The position numbers and the translations under genes were made by a program. From Acidobacteriota bacterium (GTDB lineage: Bacteria > Acidobacteriota > Vicinamibacteria > Vicinamibacterales > CAVVIG01), in contig JAOBWF010000119.1 in NCBI GenBank assembly GCA_025463215.1, positions 1,840 to 65,839 of the forward strand: 64,000 nucleotides of DNA. The letters run 5' to 3'. The notes under the pieces were generated by a model that made no database searches, was not told where the DNA came from, and saw only the letters and a program-made list of their open reading frames with translations. Below are positions 11,079-50,209 of the stretch, piece after piece. How positions within the stretch are numbered: the stretch's first letter is position 1; every line of letters starts with the position of its first letter.

Positions 11079-11200
11079 TTCAAATCCCCGCAACCCAGGG
11101 CCTGTCGAGCAGTACCTTACGCTGCGAGAGGTGCACATACAATTGGGGTGACGCGTTTCATGGGTGCGCGTCATCCAGCGGTCGACGGAACCGGATTGAT

Positions 11201-12523
11201 ATGGGCCGCAACACGCAGAAGAGGAACGTCCAGAAGGCGGTGACGCACGCGATCGGTCTGCACAAGCGCGGACAGTTCGACGAGGCTGAACGCGGCTACC
11301 GCGCCGTGCTCCGCCGGCAGCCGGACCATCCCGACGCCCTGCACTTTCTCGGATTGCTGTTGCATCGGCGCGGCGACACCGCGGCCGCTGTGGATTCAGT
11401 GCGGCGCGCCACCGTGGCCGCGCCCGGTTATGCCGACGCCTTCAACAACCTCGGGAACCTGCTCAAGCTGGCGGGGCAGTTCGCGGACGCCGAAACCGCG
11501 TACCGGCAGGCCCTCAGGCTGCGTCCGGATGACGCCAATGCCCACAGCAATCTAGGTGTCGTGCTCAGGGTGCGCGGACTGCTCGCCGACTCCGAAGCCG
11601 CATTGCGGCAGGCGATCGCGATCGACGGTCGTCACGTGCCGGCGCACACCAACCTTGGTCACGTCCTCAAGCGCGCTGGGCGGATCGAGGAGGCCATCGC
11701 CTCTTATCGCGCCGCGATTGCGCTGGATCCCGACAATCCGATGGGGCCGCGTGTGCTGGGACGCGCCTATCAGGCGAATGGCGAGCCGGACAAAGCGCGC
11801 GCCGTGTTCGAGGCCTGGGTCGCGCGCGATCCAGACAACCCCATCGCACGGCACATGCTCAGCGCGTGCACGAGCGGCGCGGCGCCCGCGCGGGCGTCCG
11901 ACGCATATGTCCGCACGTTGTTCGACGAGATTGCCGGCAGCTTCGACGAGCACCTGGCGGATCTGCGCTATCGCGCCCCTCAATTGATCGGCGAGGCGTT
12001 CGCCGCTGTGTGGCCCGAGCCGGTCGGCACGCTCGATGTGCTCGACGCGGGATGCGGTACCGGATTGTGCGCCGCGTTTCTGCGCCCGCAGGCGGGGGTG
12101 CTCGTCGGGATTGATCTATCCGGCGGCATGCTGCGCCGCGCAGAGGCGTTGCACGTCTACGATCAATTGATTGAAGGGGAGCTGACCACGTTTCTCGAGG
12201 CGCATGCGGGGAGCTACGACGCGATTGTGTCGGCCGACACGCTGTGCTATTTCGGGGTTCTCGACCGTGTGTTCAAGGCGGCGGCCGGCGCGCTGCGCCC
12301 GTCCGGCCGGCTGATCTTCACTGTAGAAAAATCGGCCGCGGACGCCGAGGACGGCTTTTGCCTCCAAACCCACGGGCGCTACAACCACGACGCGTCGTAT
12401 GTCAGGCGGGAGCTCGAAGACGTCGGCCTCGCGTTGGAACGATGTCAGGAAGCCGTGTTGCGCCACGAAGCCGGCACACCCGTGCCTGGCCTGGTCGTGA
12501 CGGCAACACGGCCCGCATCCTAA
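11201..12523 (+). CDS. TPR repeat / class I SAM-dependent methyltransferase fusion
   Basis: N-terminal TPR units (AETAYRQALRLRPDDANAHSNLG...) are followed by the methyltransferase motif I VLDAGCGTGLCAAFL. Start set at ATG 11201 (MGRNTQKR). Confidence 0.75.
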   Translation: MGRNTQKRNVQKAVTHAIGLHKRGQFDEAERGYRAVLRRQPDHPDALHFLGLLLHRRGDTAAAVDSVRRATVAAPGYADAFNNLGNLLKLAGQFADAETAYRQALRLRPDDANAHSNLGVVLRVRGLLADSEAALRQAIAIDGRHVPAHTNLGHVLKRAGRIEEAIASYRAAIALDPDNPMGPRVLGRAYQANGEPDKARAVFEAWVARDPDNPIARHMLSACTSGAAPARASDAYVRTLFDEIAGSFDEHLADLRYRAPQLIGEAFAAVWPEPVGTLDVLDAGCGTGLCAAFLRPQAGVLVGIDLSGGMLRRAEALHVYDQLIEGELTTFLEAHAGSYDAIVSADTLCYFGVLDRVFKAAAGALRPSGRLIFTVEKSAADAEDGFCLQTHGRYNHDASYVRRELEDVGLALERCQEAVLRHEAGTPVPGLVVTATRPAS

Positions 12524-42168: not shown

Positions 42169-43011
42169 GTGAACACCAAACGCGCTCCGTCGCTGATCGC
42201 GGCGTTGGCTGTCACCGCCCTGCTGACCGCATGCGGCACGCCTGAACCGGCGCGCCCGGTCGTGGTGCAGGGCGCGATGGACGTCGAGACCCGCGGGCTC
42301 GCTGGGGCCATCGAGCACCCGGTCGAAGAGACGATCGGCGGCTGGACGTTCTGGCGCGGCACGATCGACGGCTACCCGGTTGTCATTTCCAAGACGCTGA
42401 AAGGGATGGCGAATGCCGCCGCGGCGACCGCGCTCGTCGCGGAGCGCTTCCATCCGGCGGCGATCATCAACCAGGGCACGGCCGGCGGCCACACGCCCGA
42501 GCTCCACGTCTTCGACATCGTACTGGGGACCGAGTCGGTGAATCTCGGATCCTTCAAGACCGGCTATCGCCCGCGCGGCGGCGGCAGCCATTACGAGGAG
42601 TGGAGTCCGCTCGACCTGATGCGCGGCGAGGGCAGCGCCGGCCAGGATCCAGCCGCGCGGACCATGCGCCGCTATGCCGGAGACGACGGGCTGCTCTCCG
42701 CGGCGCGGACCGTCCGCGATCGCTATCGCACGGGGCACGTCGTCGACGGCGTGATCGGATCGAGCGACGTCTGGAACAGCGAGATCGATCGGATCGCGCG
42801 ATTCCACGATCAATACGGCACGACCGCCGAGGAGATGGAGACCGCGTCGGCGGCGCAGATCGCGGGCCTGTTCCACATCCCGTTCCTCGGCATCCGCGTG
42901 GTGTCCAACAACATCACGAACGGCGACACCTACGACGCGAAGGTGGGCGAGGCCTGTCAGGCGTACGTGCGCGAGGTGGTGAAGGCGTACATCCGAAAGG
43001 TGAAGCGATGA
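42169..43011 (+). CDS. Nucleoside phosphorylase-fold lipoprotein (MTA/SAH nucleosidase-like)
   Basis: GTG 42169 gives MNTKRAPSLIAALAVTALLTAC (lipobox). VVVQGAMDVE...GMANAAAATALVAERFHPAAIINQGTAGG...EMETASAAQIA matches the PNP_UDP_1 / Pfs pattern. Confidence 0.7.
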   Translation: MNTKRAPSLIAALAVTALLTACGTPEPARPVVVQGAMDVETRGLAGAIEHPVEETIGGWTFWRGTIDGYPVVISKTLKGMANAAAATALVAERFHPAAIINQGTAGGHTPELHVFDIVLGTESVNLGSFKTGYRPRGGGSHYEEWSPLDLMRGEGSAGQDPAARTMRRYAGDDGLLSAARTVRDRYRTGHVVDGVIGSSDVWNSEIDRIARFHDQYGTTAEEMETASAAQIAGLFHIPFLGIRVVSNNITNGDTYDAKVGEACQAYVREVVKAYIRKVKR

Positions 43012-43841
43012 ACAGGCAGGAGGCTCAAGGTGCGACGGTGCGGGGTGCGACGGTGCGGGGTGCGAGGGTGCGGGGTGCGACGGTGCGGGGTGCAGCGAGC
43101 GTCGCCGTTGCGGTGCTGCTGAACCTGGGCGCCGCGCAGCTCCATCCGGGGGAATATGCGCCGGCCGACATCGCCTACGGCTCGCGTCTCTACGACGCCC
43201 AGTGCACCACGTGCCACGGCGCCAGCGGCGACGGCGTCGGCGGCGTCGATCTGCGCAGCGGGAAATTCAGGAACGCGGTCACGGACCAGGACCTGACGCG
43301 CGTGGTGACGACCGGCATACCCGGCACCGGGATGCAGGCGTTCAAGTTCGACGCATCGGAAATCTCGGGCATCATCGCGTTTCTGCGCAACATGAACGCG
43401 TTCGATCGCGGATCGGTCACGGTCGGCGACGCCGCGCGCGGCCGGGCGGTGTTCGACGGCAAGGGTGCCTGCGCGCGCTGTCATCGGATCGGCACGCAAG
43501 GCTCGCGCGTTGCGCCGGATCTCAGCGACATCGGCGCCATCCGCAGCGCCGGCTCCCTGCCGCGCTCGCTGATGGATCCCACCAGCCAGATGATGCCCAT
43601 CAACCGTCCGGTGCGCGCCGTCACCCGCGACGGCAAGGTCGTCAACGGCCGCCGGCTGAATGAGGACACGTATACGGTGCAGCTGATCGACGATCAGGAG
43701 AGGCTGGTCTCGCTCGCCAAGAGCGATCTCGCGGAGTTCACCATCGCCACCGTCTCGCCGATGCCGTCGTTCAGCAGCCGGCTGACGCCGGACGAAATCG
43801 CCGACGTCGTCGCCTACCTGCTGTCGCTGAAAGGACGATGA
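43008..43841 (+). CDS. Dihaem c-type cytochrome
   Basis: Two CxxCH motifs (CTTCH, CARCH). ATGA overlaps with both neighbours. The N-terminal region contains the GATVR tandem repeat. Confidence 0.8.
   Translation: MNRQEAQGATVRGATVRGARVRGATVRGAASVAVAVLLNLGAAQLHPGEYAPADIAYGSRLYDAQCTTCHGASGDGVGGVDLRSGKFRNAVTDQDLTRVVTTGIPGTGMQAFKFDASEISGIIAFLRNMNAFDRGSVTVGDAARGRAVFDGKGACARCHRIGTQGSRVAPDLSDIGAIRSAGSLPRSLMDPTSQMMPINRPVRAVTRDGKVVNGRRLNEDTYTVQLIDDQERLVSLAKSDLAEFTIATVSPMPSFSSRLTPDEIADVVAYLLSLKGR
43029..43094 (+). repeat. 15-bp tandem repeat, about 4.4 copies (ggtgcgacggtgcgg)
   Basis: Read directly: units at 43029, 43044, 43059 (one mismatch) and 43074, plus a partial unit. It encodes GATVRGATVRGARVRGATVRGA at the N-terminus of the cytochrome. 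Confidence 0.85.
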
Positions 43842-45523
43842 TCATGAAGACACGAGCCGCGGCCCTCGTTCTCGGCGTTCTGGTCGGTTGCACGTTGCAC
43901 GCCCAGGTCGGCGCCGATCGCCTCACCAACGCGGCGAAGGAAGCGCGCAACTGGCTGACCTACTCCGGCGGCTACTTCAGTCAGCGCCACAGCACGCTGA
44001 CCCAGATCACCCCCGCCAACGCGAAGACGCTCGAGCTGAAATGGATGTATCAGGCCGCCGCCGCGGGCGCCTGGCAGACCACGCCGCTGGTGGTCGACGG
44101 CGTGATGTACCTGACGCAGCGGCCCAACGATGTCGTCGCACTCGACGCGAAAAGCGGGCGCGTCTTCTGGATCTACCGGCACACGCTCGATCCGACGCAG
44201 ATCGTCTGCTGCGGCGCGAACAACCGCGGCCTCGCGATTCTCGGCGACACGCTGTTCATGGGCACGCTCGACGCGCACCTCGTCGCGATCGACGCGCGGA
44301 CCGGCCGTCTGCTGTGGAACACCAAGGTCGCCGACAGCAAAGGCGGCTACTCGGTCACGCACGCGCCGCTGGTCGTCAAGGACAAGGTGATCGTCGGCGT
44401 CGGCGGCGGCGAGTACGGCATTCGCGGCTTCGTCGCGGCGTTCGACGCGCGCAGCGGCAGAGAGGCGTGGCGGTTTTATACGATCCCGGCGCCCGACGAA
44501 CCGGGCGGCGACTCGTGGAAGGGCTGCCCGCCGAAGACCGTGGACGCCTTCTGCGATCCCGACGCGTGGAAGCACGGCGGCGGATCGGTGTGGGTCACCG
44601 GCTCCTACGATCCGGATCTGAACCTCACCTACTGGGGCGTCGGCAATGCCGGACCGGACTGGAACAACGATCAGCGCCCCGGCGACAACCTCTACACCGA
44701 TTCGGTGGTCGCACTCGACGCCGACACCGGCCGGTTGCAGTGGCACTATCAGTTCACCCCGCACGACAAGTACGACTACGACTCGGTCCAGGTGCCGGTG
44801 CTCGCCGACATCACGTGGCGCGGCGGGCCGCTCAAGGCAATGGTCTGGGCGAATCGCAACGGCAATTTCTACGTGCTCGATCGCGCGACCGGAAAATTTC
44901 TCACCGGCAGGCCGTTCGTGAAAGTGAACTGGATGGATACGTTTGACGAGCACGGCCGTCCGCACCAGACGCCGCAGCCGGCGGGGCAGCCGACGTGGCC
45001 GGGCAACCAGGGCGGCACCAACTGGTACTCGCCCTCGTACAGCCCGCACACGGGCATGTTCTATGTCTCGGCGTGGGAGGGCTACGCGACGCTGTTCGGC
45101 GGCACGCCGGTCGAATATCAGGAGGGCCGCAACTTCGGCGGCGGCGTCAACCGGCCGTTCGTTCCGATCCCCGGGGCGCCGGCGGTGCCGGGGATCCGAC
45201 GCGGCCCGATCAACAACTGGACGGAAGCGGCCGCCACCGGCGCGGTCCTCGCGCTCGACGCGGCGACCGGTGACGTGAAGTGGAAGTTCCCGATGACCGA
45301 CGTCACCGACAGCGGTATCCTGACGACCGCGTCGGACGTGCTGTTCACGGGCGGGCGCGAAGGCTATTTCCAGGCGCTCGACGCGCAGACCGGCACCCTG
45401 TTGTGGAAGGCGAGCCTCGGCGCGCAGATCGTCAGCGGACCGATTACCTACGAAGTCGATGGGAAGCAGTACGTCACCGCGATCTCCGGACTGTCGCTGT
45501 GCGTCTTCGGGCTGCGCGAGTAA
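43838..45523 (+). CDS. PQQ-dependent alcohol dehydrogenase (methanol/ethanol quinoprotein family)
   Basis: 561 aa with a signal peptide. NWLTYSGGYFSQRHS..L..I block, vicinal Cys pair (IVCCGANNRG), W-repeat propeller pattern, and TPHDKYDYDS active-site block. Confidence 0.88.
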   Translation: MIMKTRAAALVLGVLVGCTLHAQVGADRLTNAAKEARNWLTYSGGYFSQRHSTLTQITPANAKTLELKWMYQAAAAGAWQTTPLVVDGVMYLTQRPNDVVALDAKSGRVFWIYRHTLDPTQIVCCGANNRGLAILGDTLFMGTLDAHLVAIDARTGRLLWNTKVADSKGGYSVTHAPLVVKDKVIVGVGGGEYGIRGFVAAFDARSGREAWRFYTIPAPDEPGGDSWKGCPPKTVDAFCDPDAWKHGGGSVWVTGSYDPDLNLTYWGVGNAGPDWNNDQRPGDNLYTDSVVALDADTGRLQWHYQFTPHDKYDYDSVQVPVLADITWRGGPLKAMVWANRNGNFYVLDRATGKFLTGRPFVKVNWMDTFDEHGRPHQTPQPAGQPTWPGNQGGTNWYSPSYSPHTGMFYVSAWEGYATLFGGTPVEYQEGRNFGGGVNRPFVPIPGAPAVPGIRRGPINNWTEAAATGAVLALDAATGDVKWKFPMTDVTDSGILTTASDVLFTGGREGYFQALDAQTGTLLWKASLGAQIVSGPITYEVDGKQYVTAISGLSLCVFGLRE

Positions 45524-45634: not shown

Positions 45635-46348
45635 ATGTTAAAAGTCGAGCTGCACACCCACACGGCCGACGATCCGGTCGATACGATTCCGTATTCGACG
45701 TGCGATTTGATCGACCGCGCCGGGGCGCTCGGGTACGACGCGGTCGCCATCACCCTCCACGAGCAACAGCTCGATCTCCGGCGCTTCATCCCGTACGCCG
45801 CCGAGCGCGGGATCGTCCTCATCCCCGGCGTCGAACGGACGATCGAAGGCCGGCACGTCCTGCTGCTGAATTTCGCCCGCGGCACAGAGGACGTGCGGAC
45901 GTTCGACGATCTCGCCCGTCTGCGGGCCAACGCGCCGGGTCTCGTGATCGCGCCCCACCCGTTCTTTCCCGCGAGCGTCTGCCTGCGCGGCGAACTGGCG
46001 CGGCACGCGGATTTGTTCGACGCGGTGGAGCGCAACGCGATGTACATCCGCGGCGTCGATTTCAATCGCGCCGCCGAACGCTTCGCGGCGCGGCACGGCA
46101 AGCCGGTGGTCGGCAACGGTGACGTCCATCGCCTTGCCCAGCTCGGTTCGACCTATTCGCTGGTGGATGCGGAGCGGGATCCCGACGCAATCTGCGCGGC
46201 GATCGCCGCCGGCCTGGTGCGCGTCGAAAGCCGTCCGCTCGCCTGGATCGACGCGGCGCGGCTGATGTCGAGCCTGTTGCTCGCCGGCCTCGTCTCGCAG
46301 CGCGTGACCGCCGCGGGCGGTGCCGCCTGCAGCCCCGGCGCGACGTAG
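45635..46348 (+). CDS. PHP-domain (polymerase/histidinol phosphatase-like) metal hydrolase
   Basis: MLKVELHTHTADDP... is the HxH motif at the N-terminus typical of the PHP fold. Start set at ATG 45635. Confidence 0.72.
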   Translation: MLKVELHTHTADDPVDTIPYSTCDLIDRAGALGYDAVAITLHEQQLDLRRFIPYAAERGIVLIPGVERTIEGRHVLLLNFARGTEDVRTFDDLARLRANAPGLVIAPHPFFPASVCLRGELARHADLFDAVERNAMYIRGVDFNRAAERFAARHGKPVVGNGDVHRLAQLGSTYSLVDAERDPDAICAAIAAGLVRVESRPLAWIDAARLMSSLLLAGLVSQRVTAAGGAACSPGAT

Positions 46349-46448
46349 TACTCAAAACGATCGCTGAGTGCGCACAGCCGTTGTCGCCTTCGACCTTGGG
46401 TAGCGCCGGGCTTTAGACCTGCCAGGCGGCAGCCCTGAACGGCTGCGC

Positions 46449-48455
46449 TCAGAACAGCCAGCCGAACGTCAGCGTATTCGCGCCGTCACGCAGGCCGTGG
46501 GCGACATCTCCGCGCAGCACGCCGGGGGTGCCCGGAATCTTGATGCGGAGGCCGACGCCGAGATCGATTTGCACCGGCGTTGCGCCTGCTGCCGCCTGCC
46601 GCGACGCGCGCGCCGCGTCGGCGAAGCCGGCGATCCCGAGACGAACAATCGACGGCCGCTCCAGCCACCGCTGGAGCTCCGCGCTCCCGAACGTCAGCGT
46701 GCGGCCGAATGCGGACGCACCGGTGAGGTCGACCACTCCGTCGCTCAATAGCGGATGCGCACGCAGCAGCGGGGCGCGGACCTGCCCCTCGCCGGCGCCC
46801 GGCCATAACGCGAACGGCGCTTCGTCGCTGACGCGCTCGATGCCCGCGGCGCCGCGCACGACCCAGCCGCGCGTATCGGGTGACGACCGCGCGAGCGCGC
46901 GCGCGCCGAGCGAGCGGAACGCGGCGCCGCCGGTCAGCGGCGCCCATTGCGTCGCGTCAACGGTCAGCGACAGGCGATCTGTGAACGCTGCGCGTTCGAG
47001 CGAGCCGCCGATCGACGCCGCCTTGCGGCCGCCGCTCCATGCGTCGAGGCCCGCCGACGCTGCGTAGCGGACGCGGCCCGAGAGCCAGTCGCCGACGGTG
47101 ACGCCGCCGTGGGTGCGCGACTCGACAATCCGCGACTCCCGCGCGCCGCCATAGGTATCCGACTGCCACGAGCCGTCGAACCGCCACACGCCGGGCAACC
47201 GCCGTACCCCTGGCGCCGCGAAACCGACGCTGACGCCCGGCCGATGACTCCACCAGCGCCAGCCCGCGGACCACACCTCTCCTTGTCCGCTGACGCCCGG
47301 GATCGCCACGTCGATCTCCTCATTCGCGACCGTCCGCGCCACGGCGCCGGCCCATTCAATCGTGCCGCGTGGCACCGCCGACAGCTCGACGACGACGACG
47401 TCGACGGTCGCGAAGCCGTCGGCCTCGGGTTTGACCGCCAGCCGTGTCGCGGCATGATCCGGCAGCGCGGCGATCCGGCGCCGCGCGCGCTCGAAGACGT
47501 CCGCGGTCAGCAGCATGTTCGGCTGGATCGCGATCACCTCGGCGACCGTCTGATAGCGCGTGTGGTGCAATCCGTCGATTCGCACCCGGTTGACCCGCGG
47601 TTTGCCGATCCGGTTCCATGCGCGCAGCGCGCCGAGGTCGTCGTCCTGCATGAACAGGCTCGAGCCGAGGACGTCGAGCGCGTACTCGTCGTGCGCGTCG
47701 TGGGTCAGCGCGTCGCGCGCCAGCGCCGCGGCATCAGCCCAGCGCTGTTCCGCGAACCGGACGCCTGCCAGCTCGCGCAGCGGACCCGCCGCCTCCGGAC
47801 ATTGCGCGCGCACCTCGTTCAACGCCGCGTCGGCGTGCGTGATGCCGCGATCCCGGATCTCCGCGAGTGCCCGGTTCAACCGCGCGTCGCAGCCACTGAC
47901 GGCGACCCTGGCCGTCGGCCCGCCCTCTGGCACGTCGACCTGTGTGGGATTTGACGGAAGCTCGGCGGAACTCGACGGGAGGGAAGGCGGAAGGATCACG
48001 AGCGACCAGAAGCCGGCGTTCTTCCAGGCACGCTCGAAGTCGGGGGCACCGATCGATCGCGATGGGCCCCATGACGGATCATGGACGACGATCGTGTCGT
48101 CGGTCGCCGCGACCACGACGACGTAGTGATAGAGCGGGCCCCGATCCGGCAGCAGCACGATCACCGGCTGCTTGTCGTTGACGCGGGCGCGCAGCGCGGC
48201 GAGCGAATCGCCGGCGCGCGCGGTGCGCCACCCTTTCGCGCCGATCGCGCGGACCAGGACGTCGTTCGCGATGCCGCCGGCGCGGCGATCGACGAGGGGC
48301 GCGAACGCCTGGGCGTCAGCGTGGGCGTCGCCCCAGTAGCGGAACACCATCGCGGCCGCCGCGCCGCCGCACAAGGCGTCGGTCTGCGGCAGGTACGGCA
48401 CGTCCATCGCCAGCGAGGCGGCGATCGACAGCACGGCGGCCAGCGTGGTGAGCAT
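46449..48455 (-). CDS. C39-like cysteine peptidase fused to TPR-like linker, POTRA domain and Omp85-type beta-barrel
   Basis: N-terminus VPYLPQTDALCGGAAAAMVFRYWG...YHYVVVVAATDDTIVVHDPSWG (C39_2-like Cys and His blocks). VNRVRIDGLHHTRYQTVAEVIAIQPNMLLTADVFERARRRIAALPDHAATRLAVKPEADGFATVDVVVVE is POTRA-like. About 300 aa of alternating beta pattern end in TFGWLF. Confidence 0.72.
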   Translation of the reverse strand: MLTTLAAVLSIAASLAMDVPYLPQTDALCGGAAAAMVFRYWGDAHADAQAFAPLVDRRAGGIANDVLVRAIGAKGWRTARAGDSLAALRARVNDKQPVIVLLPDRGPLYHYVVVVAATDDTIVVHDPSWGPSRSIGAPDFERAWKNAGFWSLVILPPSLPSSSAELPSNPTQVDVPEGGPTARVAVSGCDARLNRALAEIRDRGITHADAALNEVRAQCPEAAGPLRELAGVRFAEQRWADAAALARDALTHDAHDEYALDVLGSSLFMQDDDLGALRAWNRIGKPRVNRVRIDGLHHTRYQTVAEVIAIQPNMLLTADVFERARRRIAALPDHAATRLAVKPEADGFATVDVVVVELSAVPRGTIEWAGAVARTVANEEIDVAIPGVSGQGEVWSAGWRWWSHRPGVSVGFAAPGVRRLPGVWRFDGSWQSDTYGGARESRIVESRTHGGVTVGDWLSGRVRYAASAGLDAWSGGRKAASIGGSLERAAFTDRLSLTVDATQWAPLTGGAAFRSLGARALARSSPDTRGWVVRGAAGIERVSDEAPFALWPGAGEGQVRAPLLRAHPLLSDGVVDLTGASAFGRTLTFGSAELQRWLERPSIVRLGIAGFADAARASRQAAAGATPVQIDLGVGLRIKIPGTPGVLRGDVAHGLRDGANTLTFGWLF

Positions 48456-48481
48456 GGACTAACCGCGGCGGTAGATCGCCG

Positions 48482-48877
48482 CTATTTCACCGCGATGATC
48501 AGGATGATCACGAGCAGCAGGATGATCAGGATGGTCGTCGTCGAGATGACGACGGTCGACGCGCCGCCGACGAGCTGGTCGTTGACCTGCTGCGCCGCAT
48601 TCGCGGCCTGTGCCAGCTGGGTGCCGTTCAGGGTGTCGACCGCCGCCGCCGCACGTGAGAGGTCAAGGCCAAGCTTGGCCGCGACAGCCTGAACTTCCGA
48701 CAGTTCAAGGGCTTTGCGTACAGTTGCGCGATCCGTGTCCTGTTTCGCTGCGGCGCCGGCGACCGTCGTCGCCAGCTGGGTGGGAGAGACGACGTGCTGC
48801 TGGCCGGCGAAGGCGGAAGAAGAGGCCATCATCAACATCGCGAGCGGGAAAACGAGAAGCTTTCGGACTGACTGCAT
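48482..48877 (-). CDS. Small exported protein with C-terminal GlyGly-TM-Lys tail (PA2779-family-like)
   Basis: Signal peptide MQSVRKLLVFPLAMLMMASSSAFA. Ala/Gln-rich helical middle region. Ends ...NDQLVGGASTVVISTTTILIILLLVIILIIAVK. It lies 26 bp upstream of the peptidase gene on the same strand. Confidence 0.6.
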   Translation of the reverse strand: MQSVRKLLVFPLAMLMMASSSAFAGQQHVVSPTQLATTVAGAAAKQDTDRATVRKALELSEVQAVAAKLGLDLSRAAAAVDTLNGTQLAQAANAAQQVNDQLVGGASTVVISTTTILIILLLVIILIIAVK

Positions 48878-48994
48878 CGGAATCCTCCTGAAAAGTGGCA
48901 ACGCGACTCAACAGGAAGCAAGGGCGATACCGCACGCATCTGCGGCCGAGCTGGTTCCGGCACGGGCCTCGCAAGGACTACAGCGGAGGTTCCA

Positions 48995-49408
48995 ATGAGA
49001 TCAATCTGTGCAGCGTTCGGTCTGGCGGCGATCTGTGCGGTCGGGCTGGGTGCGCAAAGCGCCACCACGAAGTCGAAGACCAAGGTGGAAGTGAAGGACG
49101 GCAAGGAGATCACCGTCGGCGGCTGCCTCGAGCGTAACCCGGGCGGCGGTTACATGCTGACGTCCACGGCCGGCTCGATGAAGTACGCCTTGATCACCGA
49201 CGACGATCTCTCCAAGCACGTCGGTCACCGGGTCGAGGTCAAAGGTAAGGCCGCGGACCGTGGCGACGGCAAGGTGAAGATCGAGTCGACGGTCGGCAGC
49301 GGCGACGACAAGTCGAAGGCGAAGACCGAGATCAAGGGCAACGACATGTCCGGGATGCATTATCTCGGGATGAAATCGCTCAAGATGATTTCGGCTTCCT
49401 GCGTGTAG
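48995..49408 (+). CDS. Small secreted Lys/Gly/Asp-rich hypothetical protein
   Basis: Signal peptide MRSICAAFGLAAICAVGLGAQSA. 137 aa. No family recognised. Confidence 0.55.
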   Translation: MRSICAAFGLAAICAVGLGAQSATTKSKTKVEVKDGKEITVGGCLERNPGGGYMLTSTAGSMKYALITDDDLSKHVGHRVEVKGKAADRGDGKVKIESTVGSGDDKSKAKTEIKGNDMSGMHYLGMKSLKMISASCV

Positions 49409-49447: not shown

Positions 49448-50209
49448 GTGACCCCATCCGACGATCGACTCGCCCGCTGGATCGCCGCCCTCGAAGCGAC
49501 ACATTTCGCAGAGCTCACGTTCCCTGAAGTCTCACGCGCGCTGCGCGCGCTGTCGTCGACCTACGTCGAACGGCGTGAGAAGCTGGCGGACGGAGCCGCG
49601 TTGTCTGGCACCGGCAAGCGCGCCGCATTCGCGCTGTTCTACGGCCCGCTGCATCATCTTCTCGTCGCGCACATCGTCGACCAGCTGCCCGGCGCGACCT
49701 CGGATGTGCACACGATTCTCGATCTCGGCTGCGGCACGGGTGCGTCGGGCGCCGCATGGGCCGCTGCCTGCGCCAAGACGCCGCGTGTGGTCGGCATCGA
49801 TCGGCATCCGTGGACGATTGGGGAGGCCGCGGCGACCTACAAGGCGTTCGGCATTTCCGCGACGGTTCGGCGCGGCGACATCGCGACCGCGCCGCTGCCG
49901 AAGGGTCCGGCCTCCATTCTCGCGGCGTTCACGATGAACGAGCTGCCCGAGGCGTCGCGCGACGCGCTGATGGCGCGGCTGGTCGCTCGCGCTGCCGACG
50001 GCGATCGCGTGCTCATCGTCGAGCCGCTGGCCGGGTTCGTGGCGCGCTGGTGGAACCGCTGGCGCGACACCTTCGAATCAGCCGGAGGGCGCGCTGACGA
50101 ATGGCGTCTGCGGACGGAGCTGCCGCCGATCGTCGCCAAGCTCGATCGCGCCGCGGGACTGAATCATCGCGAGATCACCGGCCGATCGCTGTGGTTGGGG
50201 CACCGCTGA
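49448..50209 (+). CDS. Class I SAM-dependent methyltransferase (Rsm22-like)
   Basis: ILDLGCGTGASGAAWA motif I, with downstream motifs in the usual order. 253 aa. Confidence 0.7.
   Translation: MTPSDDRLARWIAALEATHFAELTFPEVSRALRALSSTYVERREKLADGAALSGTGKRAAFALFYGPLHHLLVAHIVDQLPGATSDVHTILDLGCGTGASGAAWAAACAKTPRVVGIDRHPWTIGEAAATYKAFGISATVRRGDIATAPLPKGPASILAAFTMNELPEASRDALMARLVARAADGDRVLIVEPLAGFVARWWNRWRDTFESAGGRADEWRLRTELPPIVAKLDRAAGLNHREITGRSLWLGHR

Follow-up and report, generated by a model that had tools for sequence, protein, structure and literature searches.

A C39-TPR peptidase fused to a predicted POTRA-Omp85 barrel and paired with a small Gly-Gly protein: a new architecture of the PA2778/PA2779 system in Acidobacteriota

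In a 64,000-nucleotide stretch of the metagenome-assembled genome of a soil Acidobacteriota bacterium (assembly GCA_025463215.1, contig JAOBWF010000119.1, positions 1,840 to 65,839; hereafter the window) we describe a pair of genes on the minus strand: an open reading frame (ORF) of 131 amino acids (aa) at 48482-48877, followed by an ORF of 668 aa at 46449-48455. By profile comparison both proteins are divergent members of the PA2778/PA2779 (DUF6627) families. In the large protein the C39-TPR peptidase is continued by a POTRA domain and a predicted Omp85-type barrel, so that we are dealing with a new architecture of a catalogued, uncharacterized system and not with a categorically new one. We tentatively propose, with a confidence that stops just short of even, that this is an outer membrane-tethered, periplasm-facing peptidase which would cut its small partner after an invariant Gly-Gly and free the partner's ectodomain; the cut is read from sequence conservation and the tethering from a structural model.

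The 131-aa ORF lies upstream of the 668-aa ORF with an intergenic spacer of 26 nt, and no terminator-like site was found between the two. The start of the large gene is fixed by an in-frame TAG two codons 5'. Given that the large protein has 709 homologs and the small one 986 (nearly all of 131 aa), both ORFs can be regarded as real genes and not as chance frames; coordinates, strand and spacer are confirmed as given in the initial annotation of this DNA, a note made without database searches. NCBI lists a protein with 100% identity to the large one as 'hypothetical protein JWL71_1505'.

The relation to PA2778/PA2779, two families that the initial annotation had named, proves right: they provide the best NCBIfam matches of both proteins. 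The large protein scores 52.3 bits on C39_PA2778_fam (NF033920), below the cut-off of 150, and ten diverse fused homologs score 23-66 bits; in six diverse homologs the model extends over C39 as well as TPR (profile positions 3-250 of 255). The small protein reaches 38.3 bits on PA2779_fam (NF033919) against a cut-off of 40 and has no DUF6627 match. Partners of other fused peptidases obtain 32-44 bits on NF033919, some of them (44.3, 41.9 and 41.3) passing the cut-off, and one scores 28.0 bits on DUF6627 (PF20332, cut-off 27). A close homolog of the small protein (P0240) is called 'PA2779 family protein' by NCBI. With hhalign, the small protein aligns to canonical PA2779 with 96.5% probability (E 1e-9), GG falling on GG, and the C39-TPR region aligns to canonical PA2778 with 97.3% probability, with the Gln, Cys and His aligned.

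The C39 assignment is based on several lines of evidence. Peptidase_C39_2 (PF13529; 34.4 bits, cut-off 24) and Peptidase_C39 (PF03412; 31.1 bits, cut-off 22) cover residues 18-146 of the large protein, and C39 family models are matched by 36/36 diverse homologs. A profile of 49 homologs aligns this region with the peptidase domain of ComA (8hf6, E 9e-7), which places Gln24, Cys29, His110 and Asp126 opposite ComA Q11, C17, H96 and D112; all four are invariant in 75/75 homologs (36-100% identity). The C39-type domain that had been read from the sequence is hereby supported, and so is its catalytic cysteine (Cys29, the sole cysteine of the domain). The histidine that had been singled out, in VVHDPSWG, does not stand: H125 is also invariant, yet it lies opposite an alanine of ComA, and the catalytic histidine is His110 in LYHYVVV. 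The Asp of the HDP motif (D126) is the third catalytic residue by the ComA alignment. As for the N-terminus, this copy has no lipobox and no basic n-region; classic Sec signals are seen in many homologs of the large protein.

An AlphaFold2 model of the large protein (49-sequence alignment, predicted local distance difference test score (pLDDT) 74) places the C39 domain at residues 24-155 and, after a disordered linker (160-185), TPR-like helices (188-281), the POTRA (287-355) and strands (380-667). The linker is present in 75/75 homologs, with a length of 15-50 residues and a column conservation of 0.17. Pfam TPR_14 is matched by 32/36 diverse homologs; within the TPR region Cys189 and Cys219 are present in 71/75, a pair that fits an oxidizing compartment. 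For the POTRA domain, Pfam PF07244 yields E 0.13 in this protein and matches 8/36 homologs (best E 7.5e-4), and in an hhalign comparison of the POTRA-barrel profile with E. coli BamA only POTRA5 was aligned, weakly (E 0.18).

The predicted barrel is of the Omp85 type, as judged from the modeled structure and from weak sequence matches in relatives. The top 50 PDB matches found by Foldseek are all Omp85 proteins (BamA, TamA, FhaC; best E 1e-10, probability 1.0), with BamA and TamA ranked first and FhaC from rank 40. Pfam Omp85 (PF01103) is matched by 8/36 diverse homologs (best E 9.9e-6); for the barrel of this copy, sequence models returned no Pfam Omp85, no NCBIfam (aa 283-668) and no PDB hidden Markov model match. 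The order C39, TPR, POTRA and Omp85 barrel, as first noted, is thereby borne out by Pfam, the model and Foldseek together, and a C-terminal barrel is indeed predicted, with 15-16 strands. TpsB features were not found: there is one POTRA only, neither ShlB nor POTRA_2 is matched and FhaC stands below BamA and TamA; nor is a TPS domain among the Pfam and NCBIfam matches of the 131-aa partner.

The best-conserved segment of the barrel carries the residues P547, W551, G553, G557, R560, L563, L564, R565, A566, H567 and G573. Across the 75 homologs R565-A566-H567 is invariant in the barrel loop, and an F611-x-D613 motif is found further on. We infer that segment 543-573 and F611-x-D613 are counterparts of Omp85 loop L6 and the strand motifs, with LRAH standing for VRGF/Y. 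At the C-terminus of the large protein (46452-46475) the last residue is Arg in 37/75 and aromatic in 17/75 homologs, and Trp is found at -3 in 68/75; the terminal aromatic residue expected of proteobacterial beta-barrel signals is not conserved here. In Table 1 we provide the coordinates of all features.

Table 1. Features of the gene pair, in window coordinates, with the evidence for each.
Feature	Position	Strand	Evidence
Shine-Dalgarno AGGAGG, 6 nt 5' of the small gene ATG (48877)	48884..48889	-	sequence
Small partner gene, 131 aa, divergent PA2779/DUF6627-type	48482..48877	-	ORF, NCBIfam score, hhalign
Sec signal peptide, aa 1-24 (...SSSAFA/GQQH)	48806..48877	-	basic n-region, hydrophobic core, AxA site
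Helical ectodomain, aa 25-103	48569..48805	-	position counts over homologs; low-confidence AlphaFold2 model
Invariant Gly104-Gly105, proposed cleavage site	48563..48568	-	78 homologs counted
C-terminal hydrophobic tail, aa 106-131 (ASTVVISTTTILIILLLVIILIIAVK), presumed membrane anchor	48485..48562	-	
Large gene, 668 aa: signal peptide, C39, linker, TPR, POTRA, Omp85 barrel	46449..48455	-	
Signal-peptide-like N-terminus, aa 1-16 (MLTTLAAVLSIAASLA/MD)	48408..48455	-	sequence
C39 double-glycine-type cysteine peptidase domain, aa 17-157	47985..48407	-	Pfam, ComA alignment
Active-site codons Gln24, Cys29, His110, Asp126	48384-48386, 48369-48371, 48126-48128, 48078-48080	-	
Variable Pro/Ser-rich disordered linker, aa 158-186	47898..47984	-	pLDDT <50
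TPR-like helical domain, aa 187-283	47607..47897	-	six model helices, PDB TPR matches
Single POTRA domain, aa 284-357	47385..47606	-	beta-alpha-alpha-beta-beta topology in model
Omp85-type beta-barrel, aa 358-668	46452..47384	-	15-16 model strands
Best-conserved barrel segment, aa 543-573	46737..46829	-	75 homologs; long inter-strand loop in model

Pairing of the two genes is strict. A scan of one genome per species detected relatives of the large protein in at least 283 genomes. The 80 best loci (full-length, 36-75% identity) come nearly all from metagenome-assembled genomes (MAGs) of Vicinamibacterales or other Acidobacteriota, with a few labeled Eisenbacteria, Krumholzibacteriota or Gemmatimonadota. 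A profile of the small protein is matched in 77 of the 80 loci, and in the other 3 the contig stops at the large gene. All 77 informative loci have the pair adjacent and on the same strand, with the small gene upstream in 72 and downstream in 5, so that the co-conservation on which the initial annotation had made its proposal depend is found in relatives. Each locus has a single small gene and no other tail-bearing ORF nearby. No third conserved neighbor was found in the 80 loci; the best candidate (21/80) is discounted because it reflects local synteny.

A number of matches are only 250-460 aa long, some of them on short contigs or without a contig record, and were considered as stand-alone C39-TPR forms. 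This was rejected: of 3 sequences read, 2 have frameshift-like Arg/Pro-rich tails and 1 ends mid-POTRA. Split or frameshifted copies are present at L011, L019, L040, L074 and L079 and among the proteins P0280, P0312 and P0326, and include a 367-aa form found on 21 contigs, one of them of 1.56 Mb. These are probably assembly errors or pseudogenes and not natural stand-alone proteins. Three loci (L025, L036 and L038) come from MAGs titled Bifidobacterium or Bifidobacteriaceae, which is implausible for a diderm outer-membrane gene pair and points to mislabeled bins.

The small protein runs from a signal peptide through a helical body to QLVGG, followed by ASTVVISTTTILIILLLVIILIIAVK. The signal peptide, recognized by its sequence pattern, is kept across the homolog alignment, and the ectodomain is conserved over its whole length. 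In the AlphaFold2 model, which is of low confidence (pLDDT 46), a helix at 85-103 leads up to the GG, followed by coil at 104-112 and a second helix at 113-130; the model is too poor to serve for a fold search. Counted over 78 homologs, GG is present in 78/78 and Leu occupies -4 in 68/78. The last ectodomain helix (about aa 85-103) has hydrophobic residues at -4, -8, -11, -15 and -18 from the putative cut site. After the GG there are 22-27 residues in every counted protein: an S/T-TTT motif, then a run of I/L/V and a variable last residue (K in 29, D in 23, N in 8, others in 18).

Since the last residue varies, the tail consists of GG, a hydrophobic helix and one variable residue, and is not a classic tripartite signal. 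Of the features proposed in the initial annotation, the Sec signal peptide and (in the low-confidence model) the helical body hold, and so do the GG and the hydrophobic helix of the tail. Its basic end residue does not, Lys being found in 29/78, and with no conserved basic residue the likeness to a sortase, exosortase or rhombosortase layout is only partial.

Residue -3 of the small protein correlates with residues 129-130 of the peptidase (codons 48066-48071): among 74 loci, Ala occurs with Arg-Ala in 29 and Val with Trp-Gly in 21. An enzyme-substrate covariation is possible, but the states track the main clades; because of this confounding by phylogeny we set the correlation aside as evidence.

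To place the fused form next to its relatives we compared four canonical neighborhoods (Azoarcus sp. KH32C pAZKH, Eleftheria terrae, Azoarcus olearius and Ramlibacter solisilvae). Here too a PA2779/DUF6627 gene of about 120 aa lies directly upstream, on the same strand, of a C39-TPR gene of about 310 aa, and the canonical small protein is built alike: its signal peptide is followed by a helical body and an invariant GG, then by a Thr-rich stretch and the hydrophobic tail at the C-terminus. In 3/4 loci it ends like ...MPAGGNLTTTEWILIVLIAILVAIAL, and the Eleftheria copy has a longer, basic-ended tail. The motifs differ, being PAGG and LRSG in the canonical pairs against L[AV]GG and HDP in the fused family. 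The main difference is in the peptidase: canonical PA2778 has no POTRA and no barrel, and the fused form adds about 385 aa of POTRA and barrel. No Omp85 or POTRA gene was found within 7-8 kb of the canonical pair in any of the four loci. At one locus (L084, KH32C pAZKH) a gene for a rhomboid-family intramembrane serine protease (11150-11815) lies about 3.3 kb downstream of the pair; GlyGly-CTERM tails are processed by rhombosortases.

Canonical peptidases appear to reach the outer membrane by another route. A lipobox is present in 61/65 canonical peptidases with an intact N-terminus and Asp at +2 in 0, for which reason canonical PA2778 proteins are predicted to be outer-membrane lipoproteins; the +2 rule for lipoprotein sorting is known from Proteobacteria. 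The initial annotation knew of no barrel fusion in the PA2778 family, which agrees with these C39-TPR lipoproteins. In the fused family a lipobox-like motif occurs in 3/188 proteins, a chance-like frequency. Given a lipoprotein in the canonical form and a barrel in the fused form, the C39-TPR module would be held at the same membrane in both, and the fused form may have given up a lipid anchor at the N-terminus in exchange for a POTRA-Omp85 barrel at the C-terminus.

The two forms are far apart in sequence searches. A tblastn search for canonical loci succeeded only with a more canonical-like homolog (L037) as query, and nothing was found when the C39-TPR region of this copy was searched against plasmids. 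With the C39 domain alone and E up to 10, tblastn gave only two matches, both rejected: a spurious one in a copper-resistance locus of Cupriavidus, and a C39 protein of Deinococcus that is unrelated. When 1.84 billion representatives were searched with a C39-TPR profile, the best 150 matches listed were all of the fused family. Of one canonical peptidase, 4933 relatives were found.

Taken together, we propose a self-contained two-gene envelope module of PA2778/PA2779 type, in which the peptidase would be held by POTRA and barrel. Both proteins would be exported by Sec. The small protein, its signal peptide gone, would stay anchored by its C-terminal helix with an ectodomain of about 80 residues in the periplasm, and this ectodomain would dock onto the TPR domain of the large protein, possibly onto the POTRA as well. 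The C39 domain, on a flexible leash of 15-50 residues, would then cut after Gly104-Gly105, just before the hydrophobic helix, releasing the ectodomain with a new Gly C-terminus. The barrel would hold the peptidase on the inner side of the outer membrane, where the +2 residue would send the canonical relatives, and may additionally hand the released fragment on to the outside. We infer the docking and the cut, as well as the periplasmic position of the peptidase and any export.

Several observations argue for this scheme. The invariance of the GG, its fixed distance to the tail, Leu at -4 and hydrophobic residues at helical spacing, as in double-glycine leaders, suggest that GG is a cut site, and Sec-type signals on both proteins suggest co-localization. 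The strict one-to-one pairing of the genes and the invariance of GG together with the active site point the same way. Peptidases of the ComA/PCAT1/LahT type share the C39 fold and the Gln/Cys/His/Asp active site, and peptidase-containing ATP-binding cassette (ABC) transporters also have a peptidase fused to a membrane translocator, with Gly-Gly specificity after an amphipathic helix. In those transporters, however, the peptidase is cytoplasmic, sits on an inner-membrane exporter and trims a short N-terminal leader, the cargo being C-terminal to the GG, whereas here the predicted peptidase is Sec-exported and carried on an outer-membrane barrel, and the GG is near the C-terminus with only a hydrophobic tail beyond it.

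A precedent for a periplasmic C39 peptidase working with an outer-membrane barrel is suggested by analogy with the Fap functional-amyloid system of Pseudomonas: FapD is a Sec-exported periplasmic C39 peptidase, the activity of which is required for secretion via the FapF outer-membrane beta-barrel (PMC5557850). The large protein weakly matches NCBIfam FapD (E 0.0044). The Fap system differs in that peptidase and barrel are made as two proteins, FapF forms a trimeric barrel of 12 strands that is not of the Omp85 type, and the operon has six genes.

A number of points weigh against our proposal. The putative cleavage is read from sequence, and the C39 domain may face the cell surface instead of the periplasm. 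The helix that closely follows the GG is expected to lie in the inner membrane, whereas the peptidase would sit on the outer membrane; this leaves the reach across the periplasm unexplained. No GG-leader family is among the Pfam and NCBIfam matches of the small protein, the model of which is of low confidence (pLDDT 46). The pattern -4, -8, -11, -15 also departs from that of classical double-glycine leaders (-4, -7, -12, -15). Furthermore, canonical pairs have neither a barrel nor a nearby Omp85 gene, and therefore the core reaction must be possible without it: the barrel may serve only as an anchor that replaces the lipid. A full POTRA, a barrel of the 16-strand type and a conserved loop nonetheless exceed what a simple anchor would require, which suggests that the barrel does more.

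One form that this could take is export. An Omp85 translocon with a built-in peptidase would take a single dedicated cargo by its TPR and POTRA domains, sever it at the Gly-Gly from an inner-membrane anchor and export the fragment of about 80 residues; we consider this unlikely, but if true the logic of peptidase-containing ABC exporters would have moved to an energy-independent outer-membrane channel, which would in effect add a subtype to type V-like secretion and an eleventh subfamily to Omp85.

Alternatively, the exported part could be the enzyme itself, as in type Vd autotransporters: the C39 passenger would be threaded through its own barrel to the surface, with the linker in the pore, and act on extracellular peptides. 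In type Vd proteins (PlpD, FplA), too, a single chain carries an enzyme at its N-terminus, one POTRA and an Omp85 barrel of BamA/TamA-like type, and the order of enzyme, linker, POTRA and barrel seen here is that of PlpD (PMC4104836). The disordered linker has at least 15 residues in all homologs, and as Cys29 is the lone cysteine of the C39 domain there is no disulfide to hinder passage. Type Vd differs in its patatin-like lipase passenger with demonstrated export, the lack of TPR and the lack of a dedicated small partner; the N-terminal domain of the large protein is C39-TPR and not patatin. The TPR domain, about 5 residues from the POTRA, must remain periplasmic, so that the two halves of the conserved C39-TPR module would come to lie on opposite sides of the membrane. 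As for the partner, which is strictly co-conserved, it is expected to be periplasmic or inner-membrane, and the canonical relatives are lipoproteins without a translocator. We therefore hold this explanation to be improbable.

A different role can be argued for the partner, namely that of a membrane-anchored regulator, inhibitor or pseudo-substrate of the C39-TPR peptidase, the true substrates being other envelope proteins that are trimmed or quality-checked. One-to-one pairing without another tail-bearing ORF nearby fits a dedicated partner too, and an ectodomain conserved end to end goes beyond the need of a mere leader. In addition, a Pseudomonas aeruginosa study by TraDIS (transposon-directed insertion site sequencing) lists PA2778 as a candidate toxin because a small downstream coding sequence seemed protective (10.1101/733030). 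The invariant GG, Leu at -4 and the fixed tail distance look, however, like a cleavage site in every homolog, and no alternative candidate substrate was identified in the loci, so that we judge a regulatory partner to be unlikely. The TraDIS candidate had tentatively been listed as a toxin-immunity pair delivered by the type VI secretion system (10.1101/733030), without follow-up within that study. For the present pair we reject this as scarcely credible: both proteins carry Sec signals, and the peptidase is predicted to be anchored in the outer membrane here and to be a lipoprotein in the canonical relatives.

Returning to cleavage after Gly-Gly, a thioester at Gly105 might be resolved by transfer instead of hydrolysis, the ectodomain being passed to peptidoglycan, a lipid, an outer-membrane component or the like as acceptor in the envelope. 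GlyGly-CTERM/rhombosortase, PEP-CTERM/exosortase and LPXTG/sortase systems are alike in joining a short motif and a hydrophobic C-terminal helix to a dedicated enzyme, and a cysteine peptidase acting at a C-terminal anchor would resemble sortases and related systems (PMC3237569, PMC6219818). A PA2779-family gene of P. stutzeri DSM4166 (PSTAA_2481) is found among strong constitutive promoter candidates, together with OmpA, flagellin and cold-shock genes, which suggests that PA2779-type small proteins are an abundant envelope component (PMC10155442). The sortase-like systems differ in having membrane-embedded enzymes, many substrates per enzyme and a terminal basic cluster, whereas the fused pair has a soluble-domain C39 enzyme that is not a rhomboid, one candidate substrate beside each enzyme gene and no basic cluster. 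Transfer is moreover purely conjectural: no acceptor is apparent, and C39 enzymes are not known to us to carry out transpeptidation; we regard it as highly improbable.

DUF6627 is listed as of 'unknown function' in Pfam, and the PA2778 and PA2779 families likewise in NCBIfam; in the literature searched we found neither a functional study of PA2778, PA2779 or DUF6627 nor a paper on a C39-Omp85 fusion. In the source databases the fused protein goes by names such as 'hypothetical protein' or 'predicted double-glycine peptidase', while a truncated relative is entered as 'C39 family peptidase'. A 2014 survey of Omp85/TpsB proteins distinguishes ten subfamilies, including patatin, WD40 and 'metallo' fusions, and its text does not contain the words 'peptidase', 'TPR' or 'Acidobacteria'; the fused form adds a C39-TPR fusion outside these ten (PMC4104836). 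PA2778/PA2779 pairs are widespread (the family is named from P. aeruginosa locus tags), and for these the fused form would provide a second, independent kind of anchor that puts the peptidase at the outer membrane; it also shows the partner's Gly-Gly and the active site to be invariant together across deep divergence. If cleavage is true, a C-terminal anchor would be removed by a soluble-domain cysteine peptidase and not by a membrane-embedded sortase-like enzyme.

The genes flanking the pair are unrelated and on the opposite strand: they encode a PHP-domain protein, a DUF5818 protein and a methyltransferase. The secreted DUF5818-domain protein (137 aa, 48995-49408, plus strand) is transcribed divergently from the small gene and begins 117 nt from it. 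A methyltransferase gene like the next one outward in the window (49448-50209) is found upstream, on the opposite strand, in 14/80 loci. The large gene falls in the 2-kb bin of the window with the highest G+C content (71.7% at 46001-48000, other bins 60-69%). Further away, a cytochrome c-like gene (about 43008-43841, plus strand) with a CTTCHG motif lies upstream of a pyrroloquinoline quinone-dependent dehydrogenase gene (43838-45523), which it slightly overlaps; its N-terminal region contains a repeated GATVRGA heptad (QGATVRGATVRGARVRGATVRGA).

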